64,000 nucleotides of DNA from Blastocatellia bacterium (lineage in GTDB: Bacteria; Acidobacteriota; Blastocatellia; Chloracidobacteriales; JADJPF01): NCBI GenBank assembly GCA_016713405.1, contig JADJPF010000015.1:1-64000 (forward strand), read 5' to 3'. A program made the position numbers and the translations under genes. Of this stretch, positions 1 through 62,059 are shown piece by piece. Within the stretch, counting starts at the first letter, position 1; each line of letters opens with the position of its first letter. The notes under the pieces were generated by a model. The model saw only the letters and a program-made list of their open reading frames with translations, searched no databases and was not told where the DNA came from.

Positions 1-436
1 CACCATAAAGTAAATATTTAATTTTGATGTTCTTAGCAACTCGTAAATATGAAATAGCTAGTAGTGATAAAACAGGTAGTGAGCGAAAACTATGAGTTAT
101 GTCAAAAGCAACTTCGTCATTTTGATTAATAGATTCTGTAAGATTAGAAAATATATCCCAAAGCTCATTTTCGCTACTTCCATTAGGAATATTTATGGGT
201 TCAATAGATTGGCCTTCAAATTTTGTTTCTAACAAATTTTTTAACTCAGTCCAATTATTATGTTTTTGAACAGTTTCTGTTAAAACTATTAGAATTTTTT
301 CTGGTTTAAGCCAGCTAATAACAGCTTCAGAAAAAAACTTTGTTTTATATTCTAACTTCTTTGATGCGTCTTTTTCCCAAAAATAATTTGTTTCTTGATA
401 GTTACCTGTACCTACAAGAAATGTAATTAATTTCAT
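1..436 (-). CDS. CRISPR-associated CARF-type protein, DxTHG-motif (TM1812/Csx-like) family; partial, C-terminus lies beyond the left edge
   Basis: Absent from the ORF track because it runs off the window. My reverse-strand translation from the ATG at 436-434 reads MKLITFLVGTGNYQETNYFW...NDEVAFDITHSFRSLPVLSLLAISYL. The N-terminal beta-strand/G-rich start and 'DITHSFRSLP' fit the DxTHG family signature. GGAG lies about 8 nt upstream. The gene sits 38 nt downstream of cmr6 on the same strand. Confidence 0.7.
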   Translation of the reverse strand, partial: MKLITFLVGTGNYQETNYFWEKDASKKLEYKTKFFSEAVISWLKPEKILIVLTETVQKHNNWTELKNLLETKFEGQSIEPINIPNGSSENELWDIFSNLTESINQNDEVAFDITHSFRSLPVLSLLAISYLRVAKNIKIKYLLYG

Positions 437-474
437 AAAATATACTCCAAAAATTTATAAATCATTTCAAATGT

Positions 475-1519
475 TCAACTAGCAGAATAATTTTTAAACT
501 TTTCATACCAATGTTTATCTTTAAACTTTTTCTTATCAACTTCGTCGGCTCTTTTTATTATTACTTCAGCCACTTTTAGTTTTTGACTAGGTTCTGTTAT
601 ATCTTCCCATTTTTTAATATAATTGCCAATTTCACCAGCAAATCTATTATTTGGTAAATTATTAATTGCCATTATCATAGGATCTTCTATTTTAGTTTCT
701 TTTTTTTCTAATACTGCTACTGACTGATTTTCTACAGATATTTTTCTTTCAGGAATTTCTAATTCCATACGACCATATCCGCTAGATGTTTTTGCTCCAA
801 CACCTAATTCTTTTAATGCTTCTTTTAGTATGTCAAAAGTTAAACTTACCCAATCTTCTGGGCCTGATAATGCAATTAAATATTCTCCTGTAGCAGTAAG
901 AAATGAAATAGGCGTTGTGCTGTCCCAATCTGCTGGTTGCAAGATTTTTATCTTGATAATAATCTTGGTGGTGGACTGTGATTACATCAGCATGTAAAGC
1001 TTGTTTATTAATTCCACTATCAGGAACATAAAGCGCGTCATAAAATGTAACAAAACCTGCTGCTTCTTTATTATTTTGATCATCTGCGGAAGTACCAAAG
1101 ACAGTTGCATAATTAGGAGAAGTTTTTTCCCAACCTTGTAAATAATCTCTTGCATAACTAGCTGTTACACCTTTTAATGCACTAGCAGGGATATAAGGCA
1201 CGCCATAAGTATGATGTAGCTTTATGGAAGTTTCTAAAACGCTTTCTGTGCCAAGCCCAACAGCCATACGGCCTTGAACCGTAGCTTTACCAGTTTGCAC
1301 ATCTGAAATTTGCTCTAAAGTTTGCTTCCAGCGTTGATAAAATTTTGTGTAAATTTCTGGTTGAGAAATTGTTCCTACTTCATTGACTAATCTAGTTTTT
1401 GGTTGCTCATTGTTATTGGTTGATTCCTGTTGAGTTGTAAGAAATTTATCTAGCCAAAGACCTGCATGGTTAGCTATTGATTTATCTAAATTAACAAAGA
1501 CATTTCGACAACTATTCAT
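475..1519 (-). pseudogene. cmr6: Cmr6 (type III-B RAMP subunit), split into two ORFs (833-1519, 475-942) by one frameshift; carries a C-terminal extension of about 95 aa
   Basis: The N-terminus 'ANHAGLWLDKFL', 'GVPYIPASALKG' and the G-rich loop 'GVGAKTSSGYGRMEL' are RAMP/Cmr6 hallmarks. The reading frame switches at the T5 run at 945-949 (...HHQDYYQDK | QPADWDSTTPISFL). Confidence 0.8.
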
Positions 1520-1540
1520 AAATATTTCCTTGTAAGTTTT

Positions 1541-1894
1541 TTAATTATCTTTTTCCTCTAACAAGCTTTGTGAAAGGCGTTTGTACCAAGACAAGGCATC
1601 TAAAACATCTTTAGTTAATTTCATATATTCGGCTAAATTTGCTTCACGGCTTTGTTTTAGTAAATCATCTTTGTTGCTGTTAGTGTTCAGTGTTTTAGCT
1701 AAGTCTTCCAGCAAAAAAGCACCATTTTTAGCATTAGCAAAAGCTAAGGCTTGAGCTAGACCAGCAGTATGGATTAACACAGGGAGTTTATCTGCCATTG
1801 TTTTGTATTTGTCTTTTTTTTCTTTAGATTCTGTAGCAACTTGGCTAACGTGTCCATAAGCACTGCTTGCATATTTTTGATTTCGTGTTGGCAT
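1541..1894 (-). CDS. cmr5: Cmr5 (type III-B small subunit)
   Basis: 117 aa, helical. 'LPVLIHTAGLAQALAF' is typical of Cmr5. The gene lies between cmr4 and cmr6. Confidence 0.75.
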   Translation of the reverse strand: MPTRNQKYASSAYGHVSQVATESKEKKDKYKTMADKLPVLIHTAGLAQALAFANAKNGAFLLEDLAKTLNTNSNKDDLLKQSREANLAEYMKLTKDVLDALSWYKRLSQSLLEEKDN

Positions 1895-1912
1895 AGTTTT
1901 TTTCCTCCTAAC

Positions 1913-2799
1913 TTACTGGTTTATTAATTTGACTGAGCATAAGCCATGACCAACGGTTGCTTTACCGCCAAATTGCACAGTTTTGTTAGTTATTGTTGTA
2001 ATAGCTTCAAAGACTTTGTTGGTAGTTATCTCTGCTTTCTTAGTAGGGTTAGCAATGACTAAGCCAGACAAAATTGTTTCTGTTGGCAAGGTTTCTTCAT
2101 ACCAAAGATTTTCTGCTGTTTTAGATTCATCATTTATAACAATTCTTGCAGAAACTTCTGTTGCAGTTTCTAACAAAAGCTTAATAAATCGTCTGAGACA
2201 ATACAAAAACGTGCTTTAAGCATATCTTGCCATTCTGGAGAGTCAGCAAAAATTCTTGGTGCTAGCCAATCAGCCCAATTGCTAGCTTTTACAACTTCAG
2301 TATTATTATTGCTTGGAGTTAAATCTAAATCTTCTAAAAATACCTTGCTATTATTGTTAACACCATGTTTTAGACAACTAGTTGTTATTACTAAACAAGA
2401 GGTTTCTTGTAATGTTTTTGGGGTTTCAGGCAATTTATTTATTCCTGCTACCTTAGCATCACGAACAAATCTTTGTAGAATGTAAGGCGAAGTCACCCAA
2501 GCAAACGTTCCTACAAGGCTACGAATAGGCAGCAACAACAAACGTTGATCAGAAAATTGCACAGATCCAGCATGTTCCATAGTTTGAGATTTTTCTTCAT
2601 TCCCAGTTCCAAAAATACTTTTTTGTTGTTTTTCGTCTGTGCAAAGATCTCGCAAACTACCTTTTACAGATGAACCTGGCAAAAAAGGTATTCCAGTAGC
2701 TTTTTCTCTAGCGATAGGCAAATCAATTACACCAATTCCTTGGCCTGTGCCAGCGTGCAAAGGCGATAGTGCATGGACAAAAGCTAAACGCGCTTCCAT
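1913..2799 (-). pseudogene. cmr4: Cmr4 (type III-B backbone RAMP, target-RNA cleaving subunit), split by one frameshift (ORFs 2170-2799 and 1913-2206)
   Basis: 'FVHALSPLHAGTGQGIGVIDLPIAREKATGIPFLPGSSVKGSLRD' is a classic Cmr4 N-terminus. The C-terminal 'FGGKATVGHGLC' is a G-rich loop. Restoring one T at the run at 2186-2188 gives ...IVSDDFIKLLLETATEV. Confidence 0.85.
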
Positions 2800-2813
2800 A
2801 AAATTTCTCCTTG

Positions 2814-4044
2814 TTAATTTTGTTTAGTAAGAAAATCAAGAAATGCTTTAAGTATATTAGTTTCTTTATTTAATAATGGGGTTCCATTACTTCTTGTTAT
2901 TTTAAGTGCTTCTTGTTCTGTAAGGTTAATTTGGACATTTTTTGGCTGATTCCAATTATTAGCTTTTAAGACCACTTGATTATTAATCGCTTGTTGAGTA
3001 CCTTCTAAAACCGCAGCTAAACCTACATAACCATTGCTACATTTGATTGGCCGCAAAATAAGAGGACTAGCTAATCTATCAGAGTTTTTTAGAGCAAGTG
3101 TTGTATCTTGTGGATCACTAGTTTTATATCTGTTCCCATCCTTAAAATGAAAAATTATTGGTAAACCAAAAACTGCACGAGGAAATTTATTAACAGGATG
3201 TGTTGGATTATGATCTTTATTTTGGTTAACTAAATGTTGTCCTGTTAATCGCCTAATAGCATCTGGTTCAGGCCATCGGCTACGGCCTTGGTTCCCGTTG
3301 CGTTGTTGGCGAAAAATTTTTAGTTTACTGATTAAAATGTTACTGGCTTCTTTACCATTAGCAAAAGTTGTTGGAAGAATCTTAAATTCTAGCTTATGGC
3401 TTAAATGAGGAACATTTTGAGGCCAATTTGTAGAATCAATAACATGTTTTTTTAAGCCTGCACGAATATTATTTTCTACATCTTTTGTACTAATCTCTTT
3501 TGATTTCATAGAGATAGCTCCAAATCCGCGTCTAGTTCTTGCTCCAATGCCGCCAAATGTTTCCCAAGCCCAAAAAGCAGCTTCTACATCAGTTTGTAAA
3601 TCTTTTGGATATTTAATGCTTAATTTAAAAGTAATGTTATCTCTGAGTTTTTGTTTTCTTGTCTTAAAGCAAAAGCTGCATAAGGGTTAACATCCTTTGC
3701 AGATTGAATAAGTTCTAACACCTTGATAGTTGTTTCAACAAAAACTTGTACTTTTGAAGCAGGCTTTTCACCTTTTTTATCTTTGCTAGCTGTTCCCCAA
3801 ATCGCATCTTCTGCTCTTTTCATTTGTTCTAAGTTTGCAATGCCCCACCACGACAAGCACGCCACCAAAAAAGAAGTTGCCCACGAATGCTTGAACCACG
3901 AATTGTTGTTATTGGGTCGGCTTCGCCCGGCTTTACTCCACCACCAAACAAAGGTGTGATTAATTCATATTTACGTTCTTGAGTAATGTTTGATTCCTTA
4001 AGTGGAGGAAATTTTGGGCATTCAACCTTTGGTTTTCTATTCAT
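2814..4044 (-). pseudogene. cmr1: Cmr1 (type III-B RAMP), interrupted by two frameshifts (ORF pieces 3829-4080, 3620-3868, 2814-3509)
   Basis: 'YELITPLFGGG...IRGSSIRGQLLFWWRA' is the Cmr1 N-terminal motif. The untracked frame at 3510-3640 encodes 'WETFGGIGARTRRGFGAI', a G-rich loop. The start is most likely the ATG at 4044, preceded by GGAGGTG and overlapping the cmr3 stop (TAATG). Frameshifts lie at the C4 run 3843-3846 and within about 3625-3665. Confidence 0.75.
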
Positions 4045-5234
4045 TATTTCACCTCCATTATTTCGTTTTTTCCTGACCAAGTGCCTAGCACGGCTAAACC
4101 AAAACTGTCTAAGCGGCTTTGTTCATCGTCGCTAACTGAACTTAACCAGATTTTGTCAACCCAGTTTTCTAACTCTTTTTCATTTGTCGTCTTCTCATCA
4201 AACTTTAAGAAAAACACTGTTCCAGCAGGTGCCAAGCGTCGTGTAGCTTTAGGCTTGTTAGTTTCAAAGTCCCAGCCAGAGATGACTTGAGGACGCTCTA
4301 CACGAATGGCTTTTATTTGTGGAGTTAAAGTTTTGTGAGGTGTTATCAAATATTCAGGTTGACAAATATCCTTAAAACAGCCTGGCGTTAACAGCAACAC
4401 TCTACAAGCTTTTGTGCAAAGAATTTGTTTTTTAATTTGGTCAGGACATTTAGCAAAAGGTATTGAATCGTTGTTTTTATGCCAATTGACTATTCGCCTT
4501 TCACCACCAAGCATGGCAACACCTTCGCGTAAATTAGCCTCAGTTTGCACAGCTAAAGCAAGACGAGTTAAATTAGCAAGCTTTTTATCAGCTTGTTTTT
4601 GATAAGTAAATTCTAAGCCTTGTGTTTGAAATAACGCGCCTTCTCTAGCAGTTTGGCTTTCATTCAAAATGCTTACATGTGTTCGTATATCTAAACTTGG
4701 GCCTTTATGCCCAAGATCAGAGAGATTAACATCTAGCTTATCTTGAGCGTTATTTAACCACTCTTCAAGTTTTTTCCAATACCAAAATCTTGGTGGAGGT
4801 TTATGAGGTTTTCTGTTGTCGCTTTGAGTCATGCCAACCAAAGAAAGGTTTGGAAAATCTGTTTGTAGATCAGTAAAACTATTTTCAGGCATGTTTATTG
4901 GTACAAGTTTTTTTATATTAACTGTAGTTTCATTATTTGAATCATTGTTAAGAATTACTAAATCCATTGGTGCAGGCATTAACCAATTTTGAATGCTTCC
5001 TGTTTCAGCAAGTTCAACTAAAAATGGCCCTTTAATAGCAATTTTTTTAACTTCACTAATTTTTCCTTTTTGGAAATTTCCTTGTGCATCTAGTCCAGCA
5101 CGGGTACGAACTCCGCCAGCAATCGTTGATGGGAAAGGAAAACTTAAGCTAGCGGCTCTCGCACCAGGATCACCAAATGGACGACCATCACGAAAAATTA
5201 TTGGATCACGGGGTTCAAGTATCCAAACAGTCAT
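4044..5234 (-). CDS. cmr3: Cmr3 (type III-B RAMP, Cas10 partner)
   Basis: 'MTVWILEPRDPIIFRDGRPFG...SLSFPFPSTIAGGVRT' and 'RLAPAGTVFF' are typical of Cmr3. The ORF is an intact 396 aa. Confidence 0.85.
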   Translation of the reverse strand: MTVWILEPRDPIIFRDGRPFGDPGARAASLSFPFPSTIAGGVRTRAGLDAQGNFQKGKISEVKKIAIKGPFLVELAETGSIQNWLMPAPMDLVILNNDSNNETTVNIKKLVPINMPENSFTDLQTDFPNLSLVGMTQSDNRKPHKPPPRFWYWKKLEEWLNNAQDKLDVNLSDLGHKGPSLDIRTHVSILNESQTAREGALFQTQGLEFTYQKQADKKLANLTRLALAVQTEANLREGVAMLGGERRIVNWHKNNDSIPFAKCPDQIKKQILCTKACRVLLLTPGCFKDICQPEYLITPHKTLTPQIKAIRVERPQVISGWDFETNKPKATRRLAPAGTVFFLKFDEKTTNEKELENWVDKIWLSSVSDDEQSRLDSFGLAVLGTWSGKNEIMEVK

Positions 5235-5237
5235 ATG

Positions 5238-6743
5238 CTATTTTTCCTTTCCTATTAATTTTTTAACTTCAGCAAAAATGCGAGCAACTACAAGTTCATC
5301 AGCTAGATCTTTGATGGAAACTTTGTCTTCATCAATTCTTTTTTCAATGTTTGTTAAAACATCTTTATCTACTTTTTTGCGTCTAAAAATTCTTTTCGCT
5401 TCTACTTTAATTAAATCTTTTAAGTTAGCTGTATCACCTAAACTTAAAACTAAATCTCTTAATTCATAAGCCACCCCGTCAGGAATTTGACCATTTGCAT
5501 GCAATGTGATCCAATTTTTTAGACGGTCATCTATTTCGCCCCCAACTTTGCACAATCTAAAATTGTATGTATTGGCACAAACGCTAGCACATCATCGCCA
5601 CCAGCATAAACAAGTGAGCCTTTATGCTCTGCTACAATTCTTCGGACATTGCTAGCAAATCGACTTAGAGCGTTAGAAATATTTCTGTGTGCTTCTGGAG
5701 TGTTTTGGCTGTCAATAGCTTCACCCATTCGATCACCATCAGCTAAAAGCAGCCCGTAATAGGGGCTTGGGCGTTTGTCAGCAAGATTGCAACTTTTATA
5801 AAATTCGTTTAGTGCTTTTTTAGCTTGTTTTAGTTTCTCATCTTCATTTTTAGCAAAAAAATCAACTAATCTTTCTTCAAACAAAATATGTCCATCATAA
5901 TTTTCAAAAACAGGATGAGGATCTCGTGGCACATTTCCCAGTTCACTTTCAAGACCAAAATCTTGTTTTAAGGTAAGAATATATTTTCTTACAGCAGTTT
6001 TATGCTCTTCTTTTAGCAATTCTAAAAATGGCAAAGATGCTACGTGAGATGTAGAAAAGAATCTATCTTTCCCTTTCGCCGTTCTCCATGACGTTTTAAT
6101 AAGCCTACTACCCGCAAAGCTTTTCACCTCGACCAATACCATATTTACGCCAAAGTTTTTCATCATCAAATCGGTCATATTGTTTTTCAGGAATAACAGA
6201 TTCACGTTGTCCATCTAGCGACGATTTTGGCACACCTGCTTTTCCCCAAGAAACAGCATTGTAATTTTTAGTAGCTTTTCGTGCGGCCATTAAAGCTTCT
6301 GCTTGCTTGCGAGTTTCAACATATTTTTCTAAGCTCTCTAATTTTGTAGCTACCCAGAAAAACTCTAGCATGTCCGCTATTTGTGCATCTGCGGTTTTAT
6401 TATCAAAATATCCTCGAAGATTTTTCAAGCCATCTTCTTTAATTTCATTAAGTCGAGTTTTTACATTAGTTAGAGCTTGTTTACAAATTTCTTCAGGATT
6501 ATTTTTAACAATTGCTACTATTTTGTTTGCAACATCAAAACTAATATCAGGCTCTAAATCAGATAATTCTGTTGGAGCAGGGAAAATTAAGTTCTCAATG
6601 CCTTCTTTTTCCGCAATGCTATGAGCAGCCGTTTTTGAAAGCTCACTAAGTAGCCAAGAACCAAACCAAAGATCCCGACTTCGCCTAGCAGTGATAATAA
6701 AATCCTGCACTGGGCCGATATGAATAATAATTAAGTATTCCAT
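5238..6743 (-). pseudogene. cas10: Cas10/Cmr2, short form without an HD domain; split into three ORFs by two frameshifts (6108-6743, 5531-6214, 5238-5555)
   Basis: 'MEYLIIIHIGPVQDFIITARRSRDLWFGSWLLS' is a Cmr2-type N-terminus. The palm motifs 'LLLADGDRMG' and 'SLVYAGGDDVLAF' (GGDD) are present. No HD motif precedes them. Frameshifts lie at CCC 6111-6113 and the C5 run 5539-5543. The total is only about 500 codons. Confidence 0.85.
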
Positions 6744-6964: not shown

Positions 6965-7209
6965 AGTGGAAAATTTTTAGGGTTTATGTTGTCTATTTAG
7001 CTACTCTCATTTTCTGACTGCTGCTAAATTCCCAAACTCTAGTTAATCCTTGGGAAATGTAAGTAATATAGATTCGTGAGAGTTTTTTAGAGTTTTTTGA
7101 CATTTTTTTCATAGAACTTTTTTGCAGGTTAAGCAAAAACACCCAAATTATGCTAGGAATATATCTTGCATGTTAAATGGGTTAGCATGATTATGGAGGT
7201 TAAACTGTT

Positions 7210-7974
7210 ATGAAAAAGGTAATAAGCTTGTTGATCTCTAGAATAGCTATTATTAGTTCTCTAATAATAGCTACTACGCTAGGTGTAACAGCACAGTGGA
7301 ACAACCCGTATTGGGGAACAAGTTGGAATAATCCTACATCAAGCCTACTGCAAACTATGACTATGAATAAAGTTTTTGCCGATAGTATGAGAAAACCGTT
7401 TGAGCAAAGAGGCAAAGCTTTAGATCAAAGGTCGATACCAAAGCAAAATAAACTTACTCCATACCAGCAAAAATCTGTAACTTTCTCGCCTGTTGCTAAT
7501 ATGATTATGCCAAAACAGCTAGCTGAAACGATTGGAGCAACACCCAAGGATCGCAAAGAACTTCAAAAAGCATTTACCGAATTTTTGCAGGTTTTCGACC
7601 AGGAAGCCGCTTTAGACAAAGAAGAAAATAATGTTGCTCGTGCAGTCACTTTTTTTATTGTTTGCAACTACATTGTTGCTACAGGCTTGGAGTTTGAGGA
7701 AGAACAGATCAATTTTATGGAGAGAGATATAAATATTTACCTAGCAGAAAACGAGTATTTTTGCGCCTTTGATAACCACAGGAAGCAAGAACTTTATGAA
7801 AGCTTGGTCATTCTTGGCACCCTTGCTGCCGCAGGCTATCATGACGGAGAGGAAAACGGACGAAAAGAGCAAATGGAGAGATTCCGCTCTTTAGCACGTA
7901 ATGGCTTGGAAACCTTGCTAGGTGTACCTGTTGAGAGGTTGAAATTGACAAAAGTAGGGTTGGTTATTAAATAG
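7210..7974 (+). CDS. Hypothetical secreted protein
   Basis: Has an N-terminal hydrophobic signal-like segment (LLISRIAIISSLIIATTLGVTA). GGAGG lies upstream. I recognise no family. Confidence 0.5.
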   Translation: MKKVISLLISRIAIISSLIIATTLGVTAQWNNPYWGTSWNNPTSSLLQTMTMNKVFADSMRKPFEQRGKALDQRSIPKQNKLTPYQQKSVTFSPVANMIMPKQLAETIGATPKDRKELQKAFTEFLQVFDQEAALDKEENNVARAVTFFIVCNYIVATGLEFEEEQINFMERDINIYLAENEYFCAFDNHRKQELYESLVILGTLAAAGYHDGEENGRKEQMERFRSLARNGLETLLGVPVERLKLTKVGLVIK

Positions 7975-8243
7975 TTTTACTTCTGCTCGAATAATCCATT
8001 TCTATCAGATTTGCCTTTTTAATGTCTTCTTGTTTTTTTCCTTAACTCTAACAGAAATAGAATAAAGGGAAACAAAAGGATATTACGATACAACTCAATA
8101 AGCAAATCATACAAAATCAATAGTTTATCTATTAAAACATCTCAATTCTTGAGAGTTTTCTAATGATTAAGTAGTTTTATCTAAAATCAAAAATGCAGCC
8201 GTGCTACAAACAACAGGACTAAATTTTGACCATGCTGGCTATA

Positions 8244-9092
8244 TTATTGCTTGACCAGTTCTACACGACGGTTTTTTGCGCGACCTTCTTCGGTATCGTT
8301 GCTTGCCATAGGAGCTAAGGGGCCGACACCGCGGCTAATAAGGCGACTTGCAGAAATACCGTGTTGTGTAATGAGTGCTTGCACTACTGCTTCAGCACGG
8401 GCATGGGAAAGCCTCATATTTAGATCCAGCGAAGCAATATTATCTGTATGACCTACTACATAGACCTTCAATGCTAAGTCTGCTTTCAGCAATTTGGCAA
8501 TTTCGGTTACGGCGTTGTCTGATTCAGGTTTCAACTCAGATTTTCCTGTGTCAAAGTAAATTCCTGGAACCTCAACGTGTCCACTAGTTCTAAGGCTAGT
8601 TTTAAAGATTTCTGCACTTGAAGTTACTTCCTGGGTCATTGCTTCCTTTTCGATAATGGTTAGCATATAGCCTTTTCCCCAAGCAGTGTCAAGCAATGCC
8701 CAGACTTCCTTACCATTCTTAGCTACTTTCAGAACTGTATAGCGTTTATCTTCAAAAAGTGTTGTTCCACCGATTTGAGCGATAGCTTGCTGATGATTAC
8801 GTATGATCTGCAAGGGTGAAGGGGCTACTGTAGCATCAGTCTTATATCTAATTTCAAAGCGTTTTCCTTCTACAGCAGTTTCGGTTGTCTTTCCAGTTTT
8901 AAAAGCAAATCGGTCAAAAGCGACTGTTTTGCAATATTCTATATGCATGTCCTGCATGCGAGTAAAAAGCGGATGGTCTTGGCAGCCAGCTTTATCTGGA
9001 CTCTGAGACAATACAATACTACAAAACAAAAAAATCCAAATGATGAGAACATGGATGGAAACCAATAGAGATTTTAATTTAGTACATTGCAT
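8244..9092 (-). CDS. OmpA-family (OmpA/MotB C-terminal domain) protein
   Basis: The C-terminus 'VVGHTDNIASLDLNMRLSHARAEAVVQALI...RAKNRRVELV' is the OmpA-like peptidoglycan-binding signature. An N-terminal signal/TM segment is present. Confidence 0.8.
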   Translation of the reverse strand: MQCTKLKSLLVSIHVLIIWIFLFCSIVLSQSPDKAGCQDHPLFTRMQDMHIEYCKTVAFDRFAFKTGKTTETAVEGKRFEIRYKTDATVAPSPLQIIRNHQQAIAQIGGTTLFEDKRYTVLKVAKNGKEVWALLDTAWGKGYMLTIIEKEAMTQEVTSSAEIFKTSLRTSGHVEVPGIYFDTGKSELKPESDNAVTEIAKLLKADLALKVYVVGHTDNIASLDLNMRLSHARAEAVVQALITQHGISASRLISRGVGPLAPMASNDTEEGRAKNRRVELVKQ

Positions 9093-9377
9093 ATGATGCC
9101 TCCAGTCAAAAGTTGCTCATTGTTTTGCTTAATACATCAATTACTTACAATAACTACAAAAACAAGACTTCCAAAATCGTCCCACAACTTTGCTGATGTG
9201 CTTCTATACTTAAAGCAATGAGTATGCCTAATACTAAGCTTATAAAAATGGGTGGTTATATTTTGTATATGGGTTATATTTCCCAAAATTGAAGAATAAT
9301 TGGGGGAATTAACTGTAGTGATTGCAATGTCTATTGACCATATTTAATACTCCAAAGTATTTTTGTTTGAAGTTTAT

Positions 9378-10322
9378 TTATTTTCTTGCAGAGATATAAA
9401 TTTTTACAGGTGGTTGCACTTTGTACACTTGAGCAAAGTTGTTTTGGTTGATTGCTAAGGCTAAATGGCCGCGAGAATCAATGTAAAGCAGAGGTTGGTT
9501 AACTGCCACATCACTAAAGGTTTTTACAAAAGGTAAGGAAATATTTTGCTCCCCTATTTTTATATTTATTTTTTCACTAATTTTATAGCCTAGTTTATAA
9601 AAAACTTCTGCATCAACATTGGTGACTAAATTTCCATAGGGGCCATCTAGCCCGATGACCTCAGCACTTAAGCCTTTTTCATCAATTTGTGCAGCACTGA
9701 TATTAAGTTTTACTAGCTCATTAATTGGTAATATGGGCCCTACTTTAGCCCAATTTTCACCTTTTGCTATGTGTGCTGCTACAGGTGAAAAAATATCTCG
9801 GCCATGAAAAGTTGATGACAAGGCTTGACCAATCATTAATTTAGTGTTGGTAATTTCCCTTACAGCTTCTAATCCGTCTTGTTGCTCAACTAGCGTTAGC
9901 AAACCATTGTTAGGCAAAACAAAATATTGACCGCGCTTTGATTTAGCTACAATAGCTTTTCTTTCACTCCCAACACCAGGATCTATAACAACTGCAAACA
10001 CTGTTGCAGGCGGGTAATAAGCAGTTGTTCCTGCCAAAAATCGCGCTCCATCTAAAATTGAGTAAGGCGTAACTTGATGGCTAATATCAATAATTTTAAG
10101 TTTTGGTTCGATTGAAAGCATTACACCTTTACAAATTGCTACAGAATCGTCAATTACTCCAAAATCAGACATAAACAGTATTGTAGGGCTGTTAGTTTGC
10201 TGAGTTTTCGGAGTTCGCTTTGAAGTTTGATAACTGCTAGCAAAAGTCATTAAGCTAGGCGACACCAACAAATTAAAAAGAATAAAAAAAGTAGCAAAAA
10301 TAGATAAGATTAATTTTTTCAT
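9378..10322 (-). CDS. SAM hydroxide adenosyltransferase family protein (DUF62, chlorinase/fluorinase-like) with an N-terminal signal/anchor
   Basis: 'ILFMSDFGVIDDSVAICKGVM', 'VVIDPGVGSERKAI', 'LPNNGLL' and 'STFHGRDIFSPVAAH' match the DUF62 family. The start is probably MKKLILS at 10322, because the longer ORF to 10406 overlaps the upstream MFS gene. Confidence 0.75.
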   Translation of the reverse strand: MKKLILSIFATFFILFNLLVSPSLMTFASSYQTSKRTPKTQQTNSPTILFMSDFGVIDDSVAICKGVMLSIEPKLKIIDISHQVTPYSILDGARFLAGTTAYYPPATVFAVVIDPGVGSERKAIVAKSKRGQYFVLPNNGLLTLVEQQDGLEAVREITNTKLMIGQALSSTFHGRDIFSPVAAHIAKGENWAKVGPILPINELVKLNISAAQIDEKGLSAEVIGLDGPYGNLVTNVDAEVFYKLGYKISEKINIKIGEQNISLPFVKTFSDVAVNQPLLYIDSRGHLALAINQNNFAQVYKVQPPVKIYISARK

Positions 10323-10336
10323 ATAGATAAAACACT

Positions 10337-11524
10337 CTAAGCTTTTTGTTTGATTTTTAGCATCATTATTGCAGAAAGAAAACCAAGAAATAAACAACTT
10401 ATCCAAAGTGTTGATGCTCCAAAGTTTTCTAAAACGTTTGTACCAAAAACTGGCCCTAAAGTAGTTCCAAAACCAAAAGACATTGCAAAAATGCCCATGT
10501 ATTCACCACGTCTACTAACTGGTGAAACTTCAGCAACATAAGCAGAACTTGCAGGAAATAAAATCATTTCTCCAAAAGTCCAAATAACAACGCTAATTGC
10601 TGCTGTGATTGGATCGCTAATCCAAATCATTGCACCAAACCCTAGTGCAATTAAAATACAACCTAATGCTAGAGAATATTTGTAAGCCCAAGTGTTGGTG
10701 ACGGAATTAATAGGAATTTCTAGAAATGTGATAATTATTGTATTTAATGTAAATAATAAACCATAAATGGCTTCTGACATTTTTAGATCTCTAACTAAAT
10801 AGAGTGCTGCTGTACTTTCTAGCTGAAAAAATACTAATATAGTTGGAATTAGTGCTAGTAGGAAGTAAATAAAAGCTCTATTTTTAACTGGGGGCAATGG
10901 ATTATCAATGTTTTCTAGCTTTGCATGACTTTCGCTTTTTACGATAAAAGCTTTTTTTACATGCTTAAAGAAAAGTATAAGCACAATTCCTGCTACTAGT
11001 GAAGTAACACCATCTACAACAAATAGAAGAGGATAAGAAAAATAAACTAAAAAACCTCCAACCGCTGGGCCAACACTCATTCCTAGATTTATTGCTAGAC
11101 GATTTAAGGCAAAAGCTTGTTTTAACTGCGAGCTTGGGACTATTTCGCTAATTATTGCCATACAAGCTGGCCTAAAAGCTTCACTAATTATTGACCAAAT
11201 AAAGGTGAGGGCAACAATAGCTGGAAAACTATTGATAAAAGGAAATAAAAACAATGTTAAACCAGATAAAACTAGGGAGGTTTTCATCACTTTACTTGCA
11301 CCAATGTTGTCGGCAATACGCCCAGCTATTGGAGCCGTCAGTATTCCACCAATTCCATGCGCTATTAAAGCAAGACTAGCTTTTTGTGCTGGAATATTTA
11401 ATGCTTTGGTTAAATAGATCATTAAAAAAGGCAGTACCATAGTACCAGCACGATTTATTAACACGGTTGCAGACAGTAACCATAACTCTTTAGGTAAACC
11501 TTTAAGATCTCGCCAAGGATTCAT
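10337..11524 (-). CDS. MFS transporter
   Basis: 395 aa with about 12 hydrophobic segments. An MFS-like 'GRIADNIGASK' loop follows TM2. Confidence 0.75.
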   Translation of the reverse strand: MNPWRDLKGLPKELWLLSATVLINRAGTMVLPFLMIYLTKALNIPAQKASLALIAHGIGGILTAPIAGRIADNIGASKVMKTSLVLSGLTLFLFPFINSFPAIVALTFIWSIISEAFRPACMAIISEIVPSSQLKQAFALNRLAINLGMSVGPAVGGFLVYFSYPLLFVVDGVTSLVAGIVLILFFKHVKKAFIVKSESHAKLENIDNPLPPVKNRAFIYFLLALIPTILVFFQLESTAALYLVRDLKMSEAIYGLLFTLNTIIITFLEIPINSVTNTWAYKYSLALGCILIALGFGAMIWISDPITAAISVVIWTFGEMILFPASSAYVAEVSPVSRRGEYMGIFAMSFGFGTTLGPVFGTNVLENFGASTLWISCLFLGFLSAIMMLKIKQKA

Positions 11525-17781: not shown

Positions 17782-18479
17782 TTACTTTTTAAGCTGAAAA
17801 GTCTCGTCATAATCGGCTAAGGTTGGAAAAACAAGTTTAGGTGTTTCGTTAACACTTAATAACCTTTGTTTATATTCTTCTAAGTAAGCTTTGCGGCGTT
17901 CAGTGTTAACACGGCTAACACCATAAGCTATAAATGGTGGTAAGACATCAAAGCCAACAAAATAAAGGATTCCATGATTAATAGGGAAAAGAATTTGGTG
18001 AATACTTCCATTTAATCCTAATGGAGTATACATTGACTCACCGCCTCCAGTAGTAAGCACAAGCATAGCTTTTTTGCCATGAAAAACACCCTGGTCATAC
18101 CATTTACCCCCGCCATAAATGCGACCCATAGCAAAAACACGATCTACCCAACCTTTTAATATTGCTGGAAGACCAAACCACCAAAGTGGGAATTGAAAAA
18201 CTAGTACATCACACCAATCTAGTTTAGCCATTTCAGCTTTTACATCAGAGGCAAAGCTATCTGTTTCTGAAGCAAAGATTTCTTCAACTTGTTGTTTATA
18301 GTAATGTGGCTCTTTGACATTAAGGAAATTGTGACGACCAGAAACAGGATTAAATTGTCTACCATAAAGATCAGATACTATTATTTCATGTCCTGAGCAG
18401 GCAAAACTTCTTTGGCTAAATTAAGCATCGCACCATTAAAGCTTTTTGGTTCTGGGTGTGCATAGACAACAAAATACTT
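17782..18479 (-). pseudogene. NAD(P)H dehydrogenase (quinone)/flavodoxin-like fold protein; start codon lost and internal frameshift
   Basis: The upstream frame reads 'KYFVVYAHPEPKSFNGAMLNLAKEVL' and is preceded directly by TAG, with no ATG despite GGAG upstream. The frame then changes near 18385-18410 to 'GHEIIVSDLYGRQFNP...DWCDVLVFQFPLWWFGLPAILKGW'. Confidence 0.7.
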
Positions 18480-18558
18480 CTATCTTTTATACTCCTGCGC
18501 TTTTTGGGGAAGTTATTTTAGAAGTTTAATATGTTAAGACTTAGTTTTGTCAAACTGA

Positions 18559-42194: not shown

Positions 42195-43271
42195 ATGTTT
42201 GAAAAATTAGCGTCAATAGAAAATAAATATGAAGAATTAGCTCAACAAATGAGCGACCAAGAAATTTTGTCTGACCCTAGTCGTTACACAAAAATTGCTA
42301 AACAACATCGTGACTTAACAGAAGTTGTTAATAAATATCGTATTTATAAAACTTCTTTAGATGAATTGGAACAAGCCAATGAACTCTTAAGAGAGTGTGA
42401 CGATCCAGAAATGCGAGCCTTAGCTAGAGAAGAAGTTGGTAGTGAAGAAAAAAGACTTTCTCAGACAGAAGAAGAATTAAAAGTATTACTACTACCAAAA
42501 GACCCAAATGATGATAAAAACGTGTTGTTAGAAGTTCGTGCTGGCACAGGTGGCGACGAAGCTGCGCTTTTTGCAGCAGAAATTTTCCGTATGTATGCCC
42601 GTTATGCTGAACGTCACGGATGGAAGCTAACAGTTTTAGATTCTTCTGAAACAGGTATTGGGGGGCTTAAAGAAGCTGTAGCAATGATTGAAGGCGATAA
42701 AGTTTATTCTAAGCTTAAACATGAATCAGGTGTTCATCGTGTTCAACGTGTTCCACAAACGGAAAGCTCTGGGCGTATTCATACTTCTGCTGTAACAGTT
42801 GCTGTTTTACCTGAAGCAGAAGACGTTGATGTTCATATAGATATGAAAGATCTAAGAATTGATACTTTTTGCTCTTCTGGGCCAGGGGGTCAATCAGTAA
42901 ATACTACATATTCTGCTGTAAGACTTACTCATATTCCTACTAACACCGTAGTTTCTTGTCAGGATGAAAAATCTCAAATTAAAAATAGAGAAAAAGCTAT
43001 GCGAGTTCTACGCTCTCGTTTGTTAGAAGTTGAGCGACAAAAACAACAAGATGCAATCTCTGCTGAAAGAAAGCAACAAGTTGGCTCAGGTGATCGTAGC
43101 GAGAAAATTCGTACCTATAATTTTAAGGATAACCGAGTTTCAGACCATCGAATTGGTTACACTGTTCATCAATTGGATATGTTTATGGATGGAGAAATCG
43201 GAGATCTAATCCAAGCACTTATTACTTATTATCAAGCAGAAAAACTACGTCAACAAGCTGAAGCAGCCTAA
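42195..43271 (+). CDS. prfA: Peptide chain release factor 1
   Basis: The GGQ motif '[12 protein letters not shown]' and the RF1-type tripeptide context '[13 protein letters not shown]'. Confidence 0.95.
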
Positions 43272-43365
43272 ACAAATTAATATAAATGTTTAGAAATTGG
43301 CTAAAAGCTGTGTAAAGTATTTAGGCAATTTTAAGTATTCATACTTGTAAGCTATGCTAAAGAAT

Positions 43366-43396
43366 AAAACCTGCTAACACAGGTTTTATTTTTTTA
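43366..43396 (+). terminator. Rho-independent terminator after prfA
   Basis: The stem AAAACCTG/CAGGTTTT (43366-43373 with 43380-43387) followed by ATTTTTTT. Confidence 0.65.
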
Positions 43397-43522
43397 TAAA
43401 AAAGGCAAAATTATCTAAAATTTACACTTTCGCCAGTAAATTTCCAAACTTGTAAATAAGTGATTAAGTCTAATGAGGCAAATGAGCAAACCAATAAGAA
43501 AAAATTTAGGAGGCTCGAAAAG

Positions 43523-44722
43523 ATGCGCTTAATTATTTGCTTTTTTTTATTATTTTTAACTTTAACTTGGAGCAATGTTGCTTTAGCTCAAACTCAAACA
43601 AACACACCTGCTACAACTCAAGCCAATCCTAGGATTTTAGGCGAAGTGAAAGAAATTAATAAACAACAAAACTATTTAACAATTAAAACTCCTAATGGAG
43701 AATTTCGCGTTAATGTAGCAAGTAATGTTGTTTGTAAACGTGTTGCTCCTGATGCAAAAACTCTGGATGGAGCAGAAGAAATTACTTTTACTGATATTAT
43801 GGCTGGAGATCGTGTCTGGGCTAGAAATACTACTGCCGAAACTACACCAAATTCAGTACAAGCTAAACAACTTGTTTTAATGAGTGCTACTTCTATTGCT
43901 GAGCGTAATCGCCAAGAAAGAGATAGTTGGCAACGTAGGGGGGTTGTTGGTGAAATTACTGAGATAAATTCAACTACCAAAGAAGCTACAGTGAAGTTAA
44001 GAAATGGAAGCACTATGGTAGTAACAGTTACCCCTCAAGCAGATGTTCGCCGCTATCCCCCAGGATCAGTTGAGTTTACAGATTCTAAACCAATAAGTTT
44101 TGAAGAAATTAAAATAGGGGACACTATTTTTGGACGTGGTGAGCGTAGCGAAGATGGAAAGAATTTTCGTGCAGAAATGCTAATTACAGGTGATGTTCCT
44201 CGTCCAACTTTTGGGCAAATTGTTTCTATCAACTTAGAAAAACAAGAAATTATAGTAAGAGGCCAAGGACAAGAAACCCTCATACAAGTAACTGCACAAA
44301 CTCTTCTACGTAATATGCCAGAAAATCTAGGTGGCCCAGCGGCTACAGACCCAAATAGACCTCCAAGAACAAATAACCCAGATCAAACTAATCAAACTAA
44401 CCAAGTTAATCAAACTAACCAAGCTAACCAAGCTAATGCTACTGGGCAAAGTCCAAATCCTGCTCGTCGGGAAGGTTTTCAAGGTGGGCGAGGTGGTATG
44501 TTTAACCCTAATGAAATGATAGAAAGACTACGTAATGCACCAGCAATACAATTAACAGATCTAAAAGCAGGAGAATTTATTGTTGTTAACGGGCCAAAAC
44601 TAGAAGATGGTAAATCTATTAAGGCTTTATTTTTGGTTAAATTACGCATTCCTACCAATAATCAAAATACCCCCGCAATTAGTCCTAATGGCGGTGGCTT
44701 TGGGGAAATAGGGCCACAATAA
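43523..44722 (+). CDS. Secreted hypothetical protein with repeated beta-rich modules and a Q/N/T-rich linker
   Basis: Signal peptide 'MRLIICFFLLFLTLTWSNVALAQ', with AGGAGG upstream of the ATG at 43523. Confidence 0.5.
   Translation: MRLIICFFLLFLTLTWSNVALAQTQTNTPATTQANPRILGEVKEINKQQNYLTIKTPNGEFRVNVASNVVCKRVAPDAKTLDGAEEITFTDIMAGDRVWARNTTAETTPNSVQAKQLVLMSATSIAERNRQERDSWQRRGVVGEITEINSTTKEATVKLRNGSTMVVTVTPQADVRRYPPGSVEFTDSKPISFEEIKIGDTIFGRGERSEDGKNFRAEMLITGDVPRPTFGQIVSINLEKQEIIVRGQGQETLIQVTAQTLLRNMPENLGGPAATDPNRPPRTNNPDQTNQTNQVNQTNQANQANATGQSPNPARREGFQGGRGGMFNPNEMIERLRNAPAIQLTDLKAGEFIVVNGPKLEDGKSIKALFLVKLRIPTNNQNTPAISPNGGGFGEIGPQ
44384..44437 (+). repeat. Six tandem 9-bp units (CAA-NYT-AAY) encoding QTN-QTN-QVN-QTN-QAN-QAN
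   Basis: Read directly from the sequence. It lies in frame inside CDS 43523-44722. Confidence 0.9.
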
Positions 44723-44735
44723 AGGGGGGTTAAAA

Positions 44736-47681
44736 ATGAAAAAATTAAGTAAATGGAAAAGAGAATTTTTCCTAAATTGCTGTTTAGAAATTGCTAGGTT
44801 AGTTGGTATGGTTGGGCTTACTTTTTGTTTAGTTTCCACAAGTTATGCACAATCTAAGCAAAATACTAAGTTAAAAGGACAGGTTTTAGATGAATCTGGG
44901 GCAAGTTTAGCTGGTGCAGAAGTTACATTAACTGAGGTTAATGGTAAAACTACTCAAACTGTTTCTTCTGAAAAAGGAGACTTTGAATTTTCAAGAGTTG
45001 ATTTTGGTACTTACACTCTAACTGTTTATGTACCAGGCTTTACTGTTTATGAAAGTTCAACTTTTAGCGTTGGAAATACTTCTCTTACACCTTTAGAAGT
45101 TCGTCTTGCTGTAGCTGCTGTAACAGAACAAGTTACAGTAGATTCTAGCTCTCCTGTTAGTCTTTCTTCAGAAAATAATGCTACAGCAATAGTATTAAAA
45201 GAAAAAGATTTAGAATCGTTACCAGAAGATCCAGATGAACTAGCTAGCGCGTTACAAGAATTAGCAGGCCCGGCTGCTGGCCCAAATGGAGCGCAACTTT
45301 TTGTTGATGGTTTTAACGGTCTTCGTGTTCCTCCAAAAGGCTCTATTAGGGAAATTCGTATTAATTCTAATCCTTTTTCTGCTGAATATGACCGTCTTGG
45401 TTTTGGGCGAATTGAAATTTTAACTAAGCCTGGACTTGATAAATTACATGGTGAAACTTTCTTTAATTTTAATGATGAAAGTCTTAATGCTCGCAATGCT
45501 TTTGCTCCTTTTCGCGCACCGCTTCAAATAAGACGTTTTGGAGGTAATTTATCTGGAGCAATTAAGCCTAAAAAAGCTTCATTTTTCTTGGATTTTGAAC
45601 GTCGAGAAACAGACGAAAATACTTCAATTAATGCCACTATTTTAGATAACAACCTTTTTGCTGTTCCTTTTTCTGATGTAATCTTAACTCCTCAAAGGTT
45701 TACTACTTTTTCAACTCGTGTAGATTATCAACTAGATCAAAAGACTACTCTTGTAGGACGTTATAGCTTTACAGATATTAGTAGACAAAATCAAGGAATA
45801 GGTAATTTTGCTTTAGATTCTCGCGGTTTTGATAGCACGATTCGTAATAATGTACTAAACTTTACTGCCACAACAATTATTAGTCCTAAAGTCATTAATG
45901 AAATACGTTTGCAGATGACTCGGCAATCATCTACAAGTCAAGGGGATAATTCCACGCCTTCGCTTAATGTTTTAGGGGCATTTTCTGGAGGAGGTGCGCA
46001 AGTAGGGCTTAATCGTCGAACAGAAGATAGTTTTGAGTTACAAGATTATATTTCTTATGCCTTAAGTACTCATACCTTAAAAACAGGTGTAAGGCTTCGT
46101 GGAACTAGAATAACTACCAGCAACACAGAAAATTTTGGAGGAAGCTATAGTTTTGCTGGTGATGTTAATCGTGATCCAATTACAGGATTACCCGTAGGTG
46201 GGACAATTACTAGTTTAGAGCATTTTCGCCGTACTTTATTGGGTTTGCCTGGTTATCGTCCTTCTCAATTTTCTGTTAATTCAGGAGATCCTTTTGTTTC
46301 TGTCAATCAATATGATGTAGGGCTTTTTGTACAGGATGAATGGAAAGCAAAACAAAATCTAACGGTTTCTTTGGGCCTACGTTATGAAGCACAAACAAAT
46401 CTAAATGCAAAATATAATTTTGCTCCACGCATTGCTGTTGCTTATGCTCCTCGTTCAGGTGCCAACAATTCAGCCAACAAGCTAGCAACTGTAATTCGCG
46501 GAGGTTTTGGCATTTTTTATGATCGGTTTAGTGAGGGTTTTACTTTAGAATCCCGTCGCTTAGATGGAAATCATATTACCCAATTTATCGCTACTAATCC
46601 TGACTTTTTTCCAAATATTCCTGATCTTTCTAGTTTGACAGCATTAAGACCTATTCGCCGTCAAATTGAGCCTAATTTGGAATCTCCTTATGTAATGCAA
46701 TTTGCTTTAGGAGTGGAACAACAACTTCCTTATCAATTAGTTACAACGGTAAATTACTTATTTGCTCGTGGTAATCATCTTTTACGCTCACGTAATATAA
46801 ACGCGCCGTTGCCAGGCACTTTTACTGGTATTCCTGGGTCAGGCATTCGCCCACTAGGAAATATTGGAGATATTTATCTTTATGAAGCAAGTGGGATTTC
46901 TAAAATGCACCAACTACGAGTTGGACTTTCACGTCGATTAGGGCGGGTTAGTTTCTTTTCTAGTTATGCTTATACAAAAGCTGATACTGATGCAAATGGA
47001 GCAAATGATTTTCCTGCTAATAGTTTTAATCTAGCTCCTGAATATGGAAGAAGTTCTTTACAAGTAAGCCATCAAGTATTTTTAGGTAGTACAATCACCG
47101 CACCTTATGGAATTAGAGTCAATCCTTTTTTAATAATTCGTTCAGGTCGTCCATTTGATATTACCACTGGGCGAGACAATAATGGGGATACTCGTTTTAC
47201 TGATCGCCCCTCTTTAGTTGCACCAGGAACACCTGGCAGTATTACAACAGAATTTGGCACTTTTAACCCAAACCCTAGACATGGTGAGCAAATTATCACA
47301 CCAAATTTAGGTGATGGGCCAGGTTTTGCATCCTTAAACTTGTCTTTAAGTCGCACTTTTAGCTTTGGTACTAAGCAAGCTGATGCAAATACTCAAGTTA
47401 GTGGCGGTGGAGGCCCAGTTGCAGGTGGTTTTGGTGGTGTGGCAGGTCGTGGAGGCCCGGGTGGTGGACGTGGTGGCGGTGGACGTGGCCCAGGTGGATT
47501 TGGTGATGCAGGAGATGGTAATAAACGCTTTAATATGGTACTTACATTTAGAGCCTCTAATTTATTTAATCGTACTAACTTAGGGGGTTTTACAGGTTCT
47601 CTAGGTTCACCAATTTTTGGGACTGCTAATTTTGCTAGTGAAGCAAGACGAATTGAAATGCAGATGCGCTTCCGCTTCTAA
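44736..47681 (+). CDS. TonB-dependent receptor-like outer-membrane protein with an N-terminal carboxypeptidase-regulatory-like domain
   Basis: After a signal peptide comes 'LKGQVLDESGASLAGAEVTLTE...GDFEFSRVDFGTYTL' (CarboxypepD_reg). The plug-like 'GPNGAQLFVDGF' follows. The C-terminal beta-barrel ends '...MQMRFRF'. Confidence 0.8.
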   Translation: MKKLSKWKREFFLNCCLEIARLVGMVGLTFCLVSTSYAQSKQNTKLKGQVLDESGASLAGAEVTLTEVNGKTTQTVSSEKGDFEFSRVDFGTYTLTVYVPGFTVYESSTFSVGNTSLTPLEVRLAVAAVTEQVTVDSSSPVSLSSENNATAIVLKEKDLESLPEDPDELASALQELAGPAAGPNGAQLFVDGFNGLRVPPKGSIREIRINSNPFSAEYDRLGFGRIEILTKPGLDKLHGETFFNFNDESLNARNAFAPFRAPLQIRRFGGNLSGAIKPKKASFFLDFERRETDENTSINATILDNNLFAVPFSDVILTPQRFTTFSTRVDYQLDQKTTLVGRYSFTDISRQNQGIGNFALDSRGFDSTIRNNVLNFTATTIISPKVINEIRLQMTRQSSTSQGDNSTPSLNVLGAFSGGGAQVGLNRRTEDSFELQDYISYALSTHTLKTGVRLRGTRITTSNTENFGGSYSFAGDVNRDPITGLPVGGTITSLEHFRRTLLGLPGYRPSQFSVNSGDPFVSVNQYDVGLFVQDEWKAKQNLTVSLGLRYEAQTNLNAKYNFAPRIAVAYAPRSGANNSANKLATVIRGGFGIFYDRFSEGFTLESRRLDGNHITQFIATNPDFFPNIPDLSSLTALRPIRRQIEPNLESPYVMQFALGVEQQLPYQLVTTVNYLFARGNHLLRSRNINAPLPGTFTGIPGSGIRPLGNIGDIYLYEASGISKMHQLRVGLSRRLGRVSFFSSYAYTKADTDANGANDFPANSFNLAPEYGRSSLQVSHQVFLGSTITAPYGIRVNPFLIIRSGRPFDITTGRDNNGDTRFTDRPSLVAPGTPGSITTEFGTFNPNPRHGEQIITPNLGDGPGFASLNLSLSRTFSFGTKQADANTQVSGGGGPVAGGFGGVAGRGGPGGGRGGGGRGPGGFGDAGDGNKRFNMVLTFRASNLFNRTNLGGFTGSLGSPIFGTANFASEARRIEMQMRFRF

Positions 47682-61379: not shown

Positions 61380-62059
61380 TTATAAATTTTTAAGCATATC
61401 TTTAGCCACTTGTTTATCACGAGTGTCTTCTTTTTCATGGTTAGGTGAAAGAGGTGCTTTAATTACCCATTCTAAATGCTCACGAGCTTTATCTTTATTT
61501 TTTGTTGCCGCATAAACATCAGCTATATAAATATGATTTAAGTAGAATTTGGAGCCGTGTTTTAGAGCTTTAAGCATAAAATCAAGAGCTTTTTTATTAT
61601 CACCTCGTGAAAGCGGCCAAGAAGGTAACTGATTGTAAAGACGACCTAAAACCCTTAAAGGTGCGCCATAAAAGTATTTTTCATCTATTTCTAGAGCTTT
61701 ACGAGTATGTTTTTCTATTGGATCTATTAGTCGTACAGCTTCCAACATCCCTTTTCGCGCCCATAAAGCCCATAATTCACAGCCAACCAAAAATTAGACT
61801 CTAAAGAATCTTCATCAACTTCAACACCTTGTTTTCCGTATTCAACACCTTGTTGATAAATTTCTAAACGATCTTCTGCTTCAGCAACTTCACCTCGCCA
61901 ATAGTAAATTTGTGCTAGTAGCCCATATGCCCAATCCGTGTCAGGCTCTTTTTTTATTAACTTAACTAGCAAAGTTTCAGAATCTTTAAGATTAGTTTTT
62001 TTCTGTTCTCTAAGTTTAATTAAATTAAGTGCTTCATCATAAATTTTTTGATTTTTCAT
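61380..62059 (-). pseudogene. TPR-like repeat protein, one frameshift (ORFs 61727-62059 and 61380-61790)
   Basis: Helical repeat pattern (WAYGLLAQIYYWRGE..., ...IYIADVYAATKNKDKAREHLEW). Adding one base to the CCC at 61760-61762 joins '...FWLAVNYGLYG' to 'ARKGMLEAV...'. Confidence 0.6.

Follow-up and report, generated by a model that had tools for sequence, protein, structure and literature searches.

The DNA analysed here is a 64,000-nucleotide (nt) stretch, positions 1 to 64,000 of the forward strand of contig JADJPF010000015.1 in the Blastocatellia metagenome-assembled genome (MAG) GCA_016713405.1; this whole stretch is called the window below. Its left end carries, at 475-6743 on the minus strand, a type III-B CRISPR effector operon made up of cas10/cmr2, cmr3, cmr1, cmr4, cmr5 and cmr6, after which comes the start of a csx1-like CARF gene (2-454). 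Several of these genes are interrupted by frameshifts, and it is the origin of these interruptions that concerns us here. The genes are as follows (aa, amino acids):

5238-6743, minus strand: cas10/cmr2, in three frame pieces (6743-6108, 6214-5531 and 5555-5238); two of the fragments match NCBIfam TIGR02577
4044-5234, minus strand: cmr3, intact, 396 aa, 100% identical to NCBI protein MBK7995035.1
2814-4045, minus strand: cmr1, in three frame pieces; 410 aa once restored (420-469 aa in relatives)
1913-2799, minus strand: cmr4, in two pieces of 209 and 97 aa; 295 aa once restored
1541-1894, minus strand: cmr5, intact, 117 aa (MBK7995033.1)
475-1519, minus strand: cmr6, in two pieces of 228 and 155 aa (MBK7995032.1 and MBK7995031.1); 347 aa once restored
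2-454, minus strand: 5' part of the csx1-like CARF gene, cut by the window edge; Cas_APE2256 in relatives

The fragments of open reading frame (ORF) are recognised by NCBIfam as successive parts of the Cas10/Cmr2, Cmr3, Cmr1, Cmr4 and Cmr5 models, with TIGR01888, TIGR01894, TIGR02580 and TIGR01881 among the matches in the operon, and cmr6 was identified by tblastn and by its NCBI name. The two cmr4 pieces correspond to positions 2-194 and 195-282 of the TIGR02580 profile, one each. The product of cas10 is a short form of Cas10 (580-585 aa in relatives, which have PF12469 and PF22335) that combines a Cmr2_N domain with a GGDD palm, and the sequence VYAGGDDVLAF is found in the window's copy. The order of the cmr genes is common to the window and to the comparison assemblies L002, L029 and L030. 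The deposited MAG record (locus tag IPK14_, proteins MBK79950xx), in which the contig is 85,471 nt long, carries the frameshifts too, and its 211-aa N-terminal Cas10 fragment is annotated at NCBI as hypothetical protein IPK14_17135. Neither a CRISPR array nor an RNA gene turned up in the 64-kb window in scans with Rfam and for tandem repeats. In L029 (7078-10705) and L030 (14771-18334) a Csx1-like CARF gene (Cas_APE2256) lies downstream of cmr6 and is followed by a convergent gene for a LonC-like AAA+ protease of 801-825 aa, both past the left edge of the window; the two may act together as effectors of type III-associated signalling.

Frame breaks inside the cmr operon

When the proteins of a distant intact operon, that of L002 from the Pyrinomonadales (Cas10 600, Cmr3 394, Cmr1 508, Cmr4 301, Cmr5 130 and Cmr6 394 aa), were compared with the window by tblastn, the matching frame switched twice in cas10 and also in cmr1, cmr4 and cmr6. 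The intact Cas10 proteins of L001, L004 and L029 matched the window successively in frames -3, -1 and -3, and their residues ~398-475 were missing from it. The lesions themselves were defined by alignment to the intact relatives L001, L003/L005, L004, L028 and L029:

6110-6111, minus strand: cas10, +2 insertion (AC on the plus strand, GT in the coding sense) that makes a TAG at 6108-6110 and lies outside any homopolymer
6074-6076, minus strand: cas10, -1 in a coding-strand A run (4 to 3), 35 nt from the +2 insertion
5539-5550, minus strand: cas10, deletion junction (deletion at 5546-5550), 242 nt relative to L004 and 232 nt relative to L003, L028 and L029
3839-3840, minus strand: cmr1, -1 (AAA to AA on the plus strand, TTT to TT coding)
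3726/3717, minus strand: cmr1, compensated -1/+1 pair, private to this MAG, 9 nt apart; three codons altered, net frame unchanged
3648-3652, minus strand: cmr1, -1 in a coding-strand A run (plus-strand T run), 6 to 5
2175-2178, minus strand: cmr4, -1 in a plus-strand A run (coding T run), 5 to 4
937-938, minus strand: cmr6, +1 (T to TT on the plus strand, A to AA coding)

The +2 insertion is absent from all of L001, L003/L005, L004, L028 and L029. The large cas10 deletion removes ~76-80 codons just after GGDD, namely the palm-2 segment FKLNQ...SVGVAIVHHLDPL...SGR with its SVGVAIVHHLDPL motif; there is a microhomology of 1-2 nt at the junction, where the G run has five bases as against four in L004. 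Six small edits reopen Cmr1 (410 aa), Cmr4 (295 aa), Cmr6 (347 aa) and Cas10 to residue 403, but a loss of ~230-240 nt is such that no change of homopolymer length can repair it, and so the claim of the initial annotation that every break can be mended to give a conserved protein fails for cas10. A functional Cmr module needs uninterrupted frames; here the frame is broken in four genes out of six, and cas10 is without part of palm 2.

Up to each of the cmr indels the sequence is 98-100% identical to intact alleles. The cmr1 lesion at 3648-3652, for example, stands within a block that L028, itself intact, matches at 98-99% identity; around the cmr4 lesion the intact L003 and L029 hardly differ from the window; and near the cmr6 lesion L029 is 98-100% identical and intact.

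The initial annotation had counted six frame breaks in the operon. All of these exist, both as NCBIfam fragments and as tblastn frame switches, and a seventh, the -1 at 6074-6076, had been missed. In most cases the site or the cause needs correction: the cas10 break that had been placed at a CCC (6111-6113) is the +2 insertion and no homopolymer slip; the supposed slip in a cas10 C5 run (5539-5543) is actually the junction of the 232-242-nt deletion, the run being one base longer than in L004; the cmr1 break ascribed to a C4 run (3843-3846) is caused by the -1 at 3839-3840, the C4 run having arisen from a private substitution at 3844; the cmr4 break given as 2186-2188 lies ~8 nt away; and the cmr6 break attributed to a T5 run (945-949) is due to the +1 at 937-938, the T5 run being unchanged. 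The other cmr1 break had been rightly confined to about 3625-3665, where the T run has five bases and that of relatives six.

Independent assemblies and the rest of the window

The comparison set consisted of ~25 other assemblies of the same population (the NCBI MAG GCA_017303955.1, JGI assemblies, many Logan contigs and ENA contigs). Outside cmr they are 99.1-99.9% identical to the window, and they cover the flank at 7023-64000 apart from 24309-24554 and 43331-45037. All 12 frame-breaking lesions of the window are private to this MAG, in that 0 of the ~25 independent assemblies carry any of them. The comparison with orthologous loci in related strains that had been proposed as a check thus finds the genes intact there: Cas10 is intact and without the window lesions in L001, L003/L005, L004, L028 and L029; Cmr1 is intact in L003, L028, L029 and L030 (L004 spans only its 5' end), Cmr4 in L003, L029 and L030, and Cmr6 in L029 and L030. 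Among ~15 billion proteins no second source was found for the truncated products or for the variant proteins of this MAG, the latter including a 504-aa NuoN and a release factor 1 (RF-1) with nine private replacements; the normal versions of those proteins occur on many Logan, JGI and ENA contigs and in other NCBI MAGs. Exact-protein look-ups of the N-terminal fragments of Cmr4 and of the TPR protein (below) gave no match, which is weak evidence, and look-ups of Cmr3, Cmr5, NuoK and P0001 gave none either, the index evidently being without this NCBI MAG. One of the relatives, L001 (CAZBMZ010000032.1), is titled "uncultured Clostridia bacterium" and has ~90% nucleotide identity and 8 kb of synteny with Blastocatellia MAGs; its taxonomic label is probably wrong.

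In a census of all indels that separate the window from the assemblies covering it, exactly five outside cmr break a frame, all unique to the window and each contradicted by three to seven assemblies that are 99.1-99.9% identical:

18393-18394, minus strand: Flavodoxin_2 (NQO-like) gene, -1; private, four of four covering assemblies disagree; 233 aa and intact in relatives
21089-21096, minus strand: AKR gene, +2, coding-strand A run 6 to 8; private, three of three disagree; 367 aa in relatives
53349-53353, minus strand: NHL-repeat gene, +1, plus-strand T4 to T5 at about codon 22; private, seven of seven disagree; 759 aa in relatives
56854-56858, plus strand: nuoL, -1, A run 6 to 5; private, six of six disagree; 693 aa in relatives
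61752-61755, minus strand: TPR gene, -1, plus-strand T5 to T4; private, four of four disagree; 226 aa in relatives

These are the NQO-like, AKR, NHL, nuoL and TPR genes that the initial annotation had named when it estimated about six breaks in this part of the window; the genes were correct and the census number is five, with the TPR break at 61752-61755 instead of 61760-61762. Three of the five fall in the first 13% of their genes, and outside cmr there are also a few intergenic indels. Between ~6200 and 24000, where the window is ~99.7% identical to L003, L004 and L029, the only coding indels are two of these flank lesions. The Flavodoxin_2 gene has also lost its ATG at 18481-18483 by three adjacent private changes, equivalent to a -1/+1 pair, and so holds two private lesions 90 nt apart. 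In nuoN a private in-frame -3 at 60850 with an adjacent substitution gives the 504-aa NuoN; the protein has 505 aa on more than 30 contigs from other sources. The ORF pair at 9378-11524 was considered as a possible shared frameshift and rejected, as relatives annotate two separate genes there (MFS and SAM_HAT).

Frame-breaking lesions therefore number seven in the 6,269 nt of cmr and five in the other 57,731 nt, a difference of about 10-fold (binomial P=4.4e-5) that bears out the roughly ten-fold density originally reported; counted by gene, four of six cmr genes are broken and ~5 of 52 others (Fisher P=0.004). Private indels as a whole occur at ~1.6 per kb in cmr and at a background of ~0.15-0.2 per kb. 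The density of homopolymers is equal (29.5 runs of at least 4 bases per kb in cmr and 26.5 in the rest), and so homopolymer content is no explanation of the enrichment. Eight of the 12 lesions are changes of one base in runs of 2-6 and in one more a lone base has been doubled by a +1, so that the earlier description of nearly all breaks as single-base homopolymer changes is correct in part. A nonsense substitution is the cause of none of the 12 disruptions, and there is none in the window. Neither the mixed lesion spectrum nor the relaxed constraint of genuine pseudogenes is found: nonsense changes are absent, and in the frame-restored cmr genes compared with intact alleles the ratio of nonsynonymous to synonymous polymorphism (pN/pS) is 0.2-0.5.

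Two other features of the window deserve mention. At 24309-24573 there is an intergenic insertion of ~265 nt relative to L022, with a 150-nt imperfect inverted repeat (24369-24520, 82% complementary); two short-read contigs, L023 and L024, start at its edge. This could be a palindromic element resembling a miniature inverted-repeat transposable element. In the same part of the window, a protein of 765 aa with the shoulder domain of the major vault protein (PF11978, with a faint Vault_3 match) is encoded near an 897-aa VIT/VWA protein (21365-23659 and 24857-27550). Vault-like domains are unusual in bacteria.

Mosaic cmr alleles and private substitutions

Below ~6200 the identity of the window to the other assemblies falls to 66-100% per 100 nt, and cmr is the sole segment of the window in which assemblies that are otherwise 99.7% identical differ by 10-35%. 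Nearly every 100-nt bin of cmr is nevertheless 98-100% identical to some assembly, with the best match switching ~25 times: over 475-6200, compared with L003, L004, L028, L029 and L030, the sequence is a mosaic of 100-300-nt blocks whose neighbours are 66-90% identical to the same assembly. From this pattern the effector genes seem to undergo intense shuffling of alleles or diversifying selection, unless strain mixtures were assembled chimerically. Two of the cas10 lesions sit precisely at such switches. The +2 insertion is exactly at a change from L028-like sequence (6122-6305 exact) to L004/L029-like sequence (5927-6109 exact), and the large deletion is exactly at a change from L003/L029-like sequence upstream to L004-like sequence downstream. 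Substitutions private to the window number ~24 in the 6 kb of cmr, a rate ~3 times that of the flanks. With a pN/pS of 0.2-0.5 and so few private substitutions, the cmr alleles were under selection until practically the present day.

The 2.4 kb between cas10 and the SAM_HAT gene (6965-9373), with an OmpA-family gene (8244-9092) and a DUF6683 gene (7210-7974), is kept in the window lineage; the L001/L030 lineage has ~30 nt there instead.

Scored in 5-way alignments, private indels number 9 and private substitutions 61 in the window, as against ~3 and 161 in the short-read assemblies, whose private indels neither break a gene nor fall in coding sequence (Fisher P=0.001); both marks of consensus error, confinement to one assembly and an excess of indels, are thus present in the window. 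Its private substitutions are 20 synonymous to 26 nonsynonymous, as against 83 to 36 in the other assemblies (P=0.002), they have lost the bias to third codon positions, and their transition-to-transversion ratio is 1.5 compared with 2.9. The private substitutions of this MAG look unselected, and relaxed selection would give the same result. No shared motif of the kind that would signal methylation-type basecalling error is evident around them. A patch of ten lies in prfA, the gene of the essential RF-1, at 42391-42617, where nine are nonsynonymous and one synonymous and six of the first eight are changes to G; the protein is identical in all other assemblies, and a strain that is 3.4% diverged differs there only synonymously. 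This is either an error patch or an imported allele.

Origin of the lesions

The above measurements place the lesions where strains of the population differ most, but did they arise in a cell or in the assembly? We think it probable, at roughly 60%, that the frame-breaking indels are consensus errors of assembly or polishing concentrated in a strain-heterogeneous locus and not mutations of a living lineage; we infer the technical cause from the pattern of the sequences. The cmr operon is both the hypervariable and the lesion-dense segment of the window, and as the place where strains differ most it is also where a population consensus is least reliable. Reads from different strains would map poorly or in patches over the divergent mosaic alleles, and consensus building and polishing would then produce a patchwork haplotype that retains uncorrected length errors. 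The seams between alleles could themselves be sources of defects, which would account for the +2 insertion and the ~240-nt deletion at switch points. Moreover, a lineage that is 99.7-99.9% identical to healthy strains and has a broken nuoL, four more broken genes, a scrambled RF-1 and seven cmr lesions is implausible as a living one. Published work describes short-read polishing as required against homopolymer indels in Nanopore R9.4.1 assemblies (PMC9262707), and an activated-sludge MAG study that includes many Blastocatellia reports the use of CANU, Racon, Medaka (in two rounds) and a single Racon round with Illumina reads (PMC8012365). Of the readings offered by the initial annotation, the technical or strain-heterogeneous one is accordingly favoured by the private lesions and the mosaic, and decay is unsupported by any independent assembly.

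Several observations weigh against consensus error. A ~240-nt deletion and two +2 insertions do not have the form of homopolymer errors of the classical kind. Across the flanks, the number of private changes is not correlated with the diversity sampled in the other assemblies (Spearman rho 0.12, P=0.23), and so the proposed link between heterogeneity and error finds no support outside cmr. That three of the five flank frameshifts lie near the 5' ends of their genes could mean that real mutations were filtered by selection. Of the nine private replacements in RF-1, two presumably match E. coli RF1, which hints at a natural allele. A natural truncation of cas10 exists in a sister lineage (below). 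Finally, the sequencing platform of this MAG is a presumption: its IPK../MBK7... batch of records probably belongs to the activated-sludge MAGs of Singleton et al. 2021, in which case it would be a Nanopore R9.4.1 assembly polished once with short reads.

The best surviving competitor, which we regard as somewhat unlikely, is that the operon was genuinely and very recently inactivated, the cas10 lesion coming first (the palm-2 deletion, the +2 insertion or both having killed the system) and being followed by neutral indels in the other cmr genes, with the flank frameshifts as errors or further pseudogenes. It would make sense of an enrichment that is real and operon-specific (P=4e-5), of a deletion and a +2 insertion that are not homopolymer-type errors, of lesions that lie mid-gene and are destructive, and of the threefold private substitution rate in cmr. 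There is also a precedent close at hand. In L030 (8256-10004) cas10 has an in-frame CGA to TGA change at codon 204 that splits Cas10 into 203 and 342 aa while the other cmr genes are intact, and the same 203-aa truncation is found in a second allelic background (protein P0124), so that this change is present in at least two allelic backgrounds in short-read assemblies; natural loss or splitting of Cas10 thus occurs in the clade. Recent inactivation must contend, however, with lesions that are shared by no other assembly and include no nonsense change, and with a local identity of 98-100% to intact alleles and a pN/pS of 0.2-0.5, which together would need seven extremely recent hits. Five further genes, nuoL among them, are moreover broken in the same assembly and RF-1 is altered, which is hard to square with a viable free-living lineage. 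Genuine recent inactivation, whether of the whole operon or of cas10 through the deletion alone, is even when both forms are combined less probable than consensus error.

A reading in which the lesions are likewise real, and which we find rather doubtful, makes cmr a recombination and diversification hotspot that is repeatedly lost, blocks of 100-300 nt being shuffled among strains that are 99.7% identical. The losses would then be the sister cas10 nonsense allele and the multi-hit collapse in the window, with the first lesions at recombination junctions; if true, this would suggest that type III-B immunity repeatedly carries a fitness cost.

Could the lesions have mixed origins? The cas10 deletion may be a real structural variant, perhaps from illegitimate recombination between two cmr alleles, and the single-base changes consensus errors. 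Its junction at the L003/L029-like to L004-like switch with 1-2 nt of microhomology fits this, as do the fidelity with which long reads normally report real deletions and the agreement of the single-base events with the background type of error in the flanks. We nonetheless judge it quite improbable: homologous exchange normally leaves clean junctions, the other ~25 allele switches in cmr have no deletion, and the deletion has never been sighted independently.

A mismatch-repair-deficient mutator, phase-variable (contingency) tracts and programmed frameshift sites are scarcely credible and were rejected: most lesions are indeed length changes of A/T runs, but the runs are only 2-8 nt long and do not vary in any other assembly, the transition bias of the private substitutions is lowered where a mismatch-repair defect would raise it, unrelated housekeeping genes are affected, and no slippery-site or stimulator architecture is shared among the sites.

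Anyone who accepted this MAG as it stands would record a dead type III-B system, a broken complex I subunit and several other pseudogenes, although the genes concerned are all intact in the population that it represents. If consensus error is the cause, the biological interest of the lesions is low and their value lies in a caution about calling CRISPR-Cas decay from MAGs: defence loci that are hypervariable among co-occurring strains are the least trustworthy parts of a MAG consensus, and surveys that look for "decaying" CRISPR-Cas systems in collections of MAGs should be checked at the level of reads. If, on the other hand, the lesions are real, they illustrate on a modest scale how type III-B immunity was lost in recent times.

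How do these lesions compare with known systems? The residual indel errors that incomplete short-read polishing leaves in Nanopore R9.4.1 MAGs likewise consist of +/-1 changes in A/T runs that split genes, are seen in one assembly only and are accompanied by unselected-looking extra changes; they differ in that two +2 events and a ~240-nt deletion are atypical of them, and their 10-fold local density here needs an extra cause, for which strain heterogeneity is only a proposal; this MAG, moreover, is a presumed Nanopore assembly. Decaying or niche-restricted genomes with multi-hit pseudogenised operons similarly have several disruptive indels in functionally linked genes, but in the window there is no nonsense change, the lesions are unshared, the sequence on either side of them hardly differs from intact alleles and pN/pS stays under 0.5. 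The sister-lineage cas10 nonsense allele (L030 and P0124) lies 7 codons upstream of the window's +2 insertion, likewise at the Cmr2_N/palm boundary; unlike the window lesions, it is a single C to T change, is seen in at least two assemblies and is accompanied by intact cmr genes. From a canonical type III-B (Cmr) operon with a CARF csx1 gene the window departs in its four frame-broken genes of six, its cas10 minus ~76-80 palm-2 codons and the absence of an array in 64 kb; after frame repair it has the same gene order and families, its Cas10 likewise has a GGDD palm and no HD domain, and intact versions of the operon's genes are present in sister assemblies.

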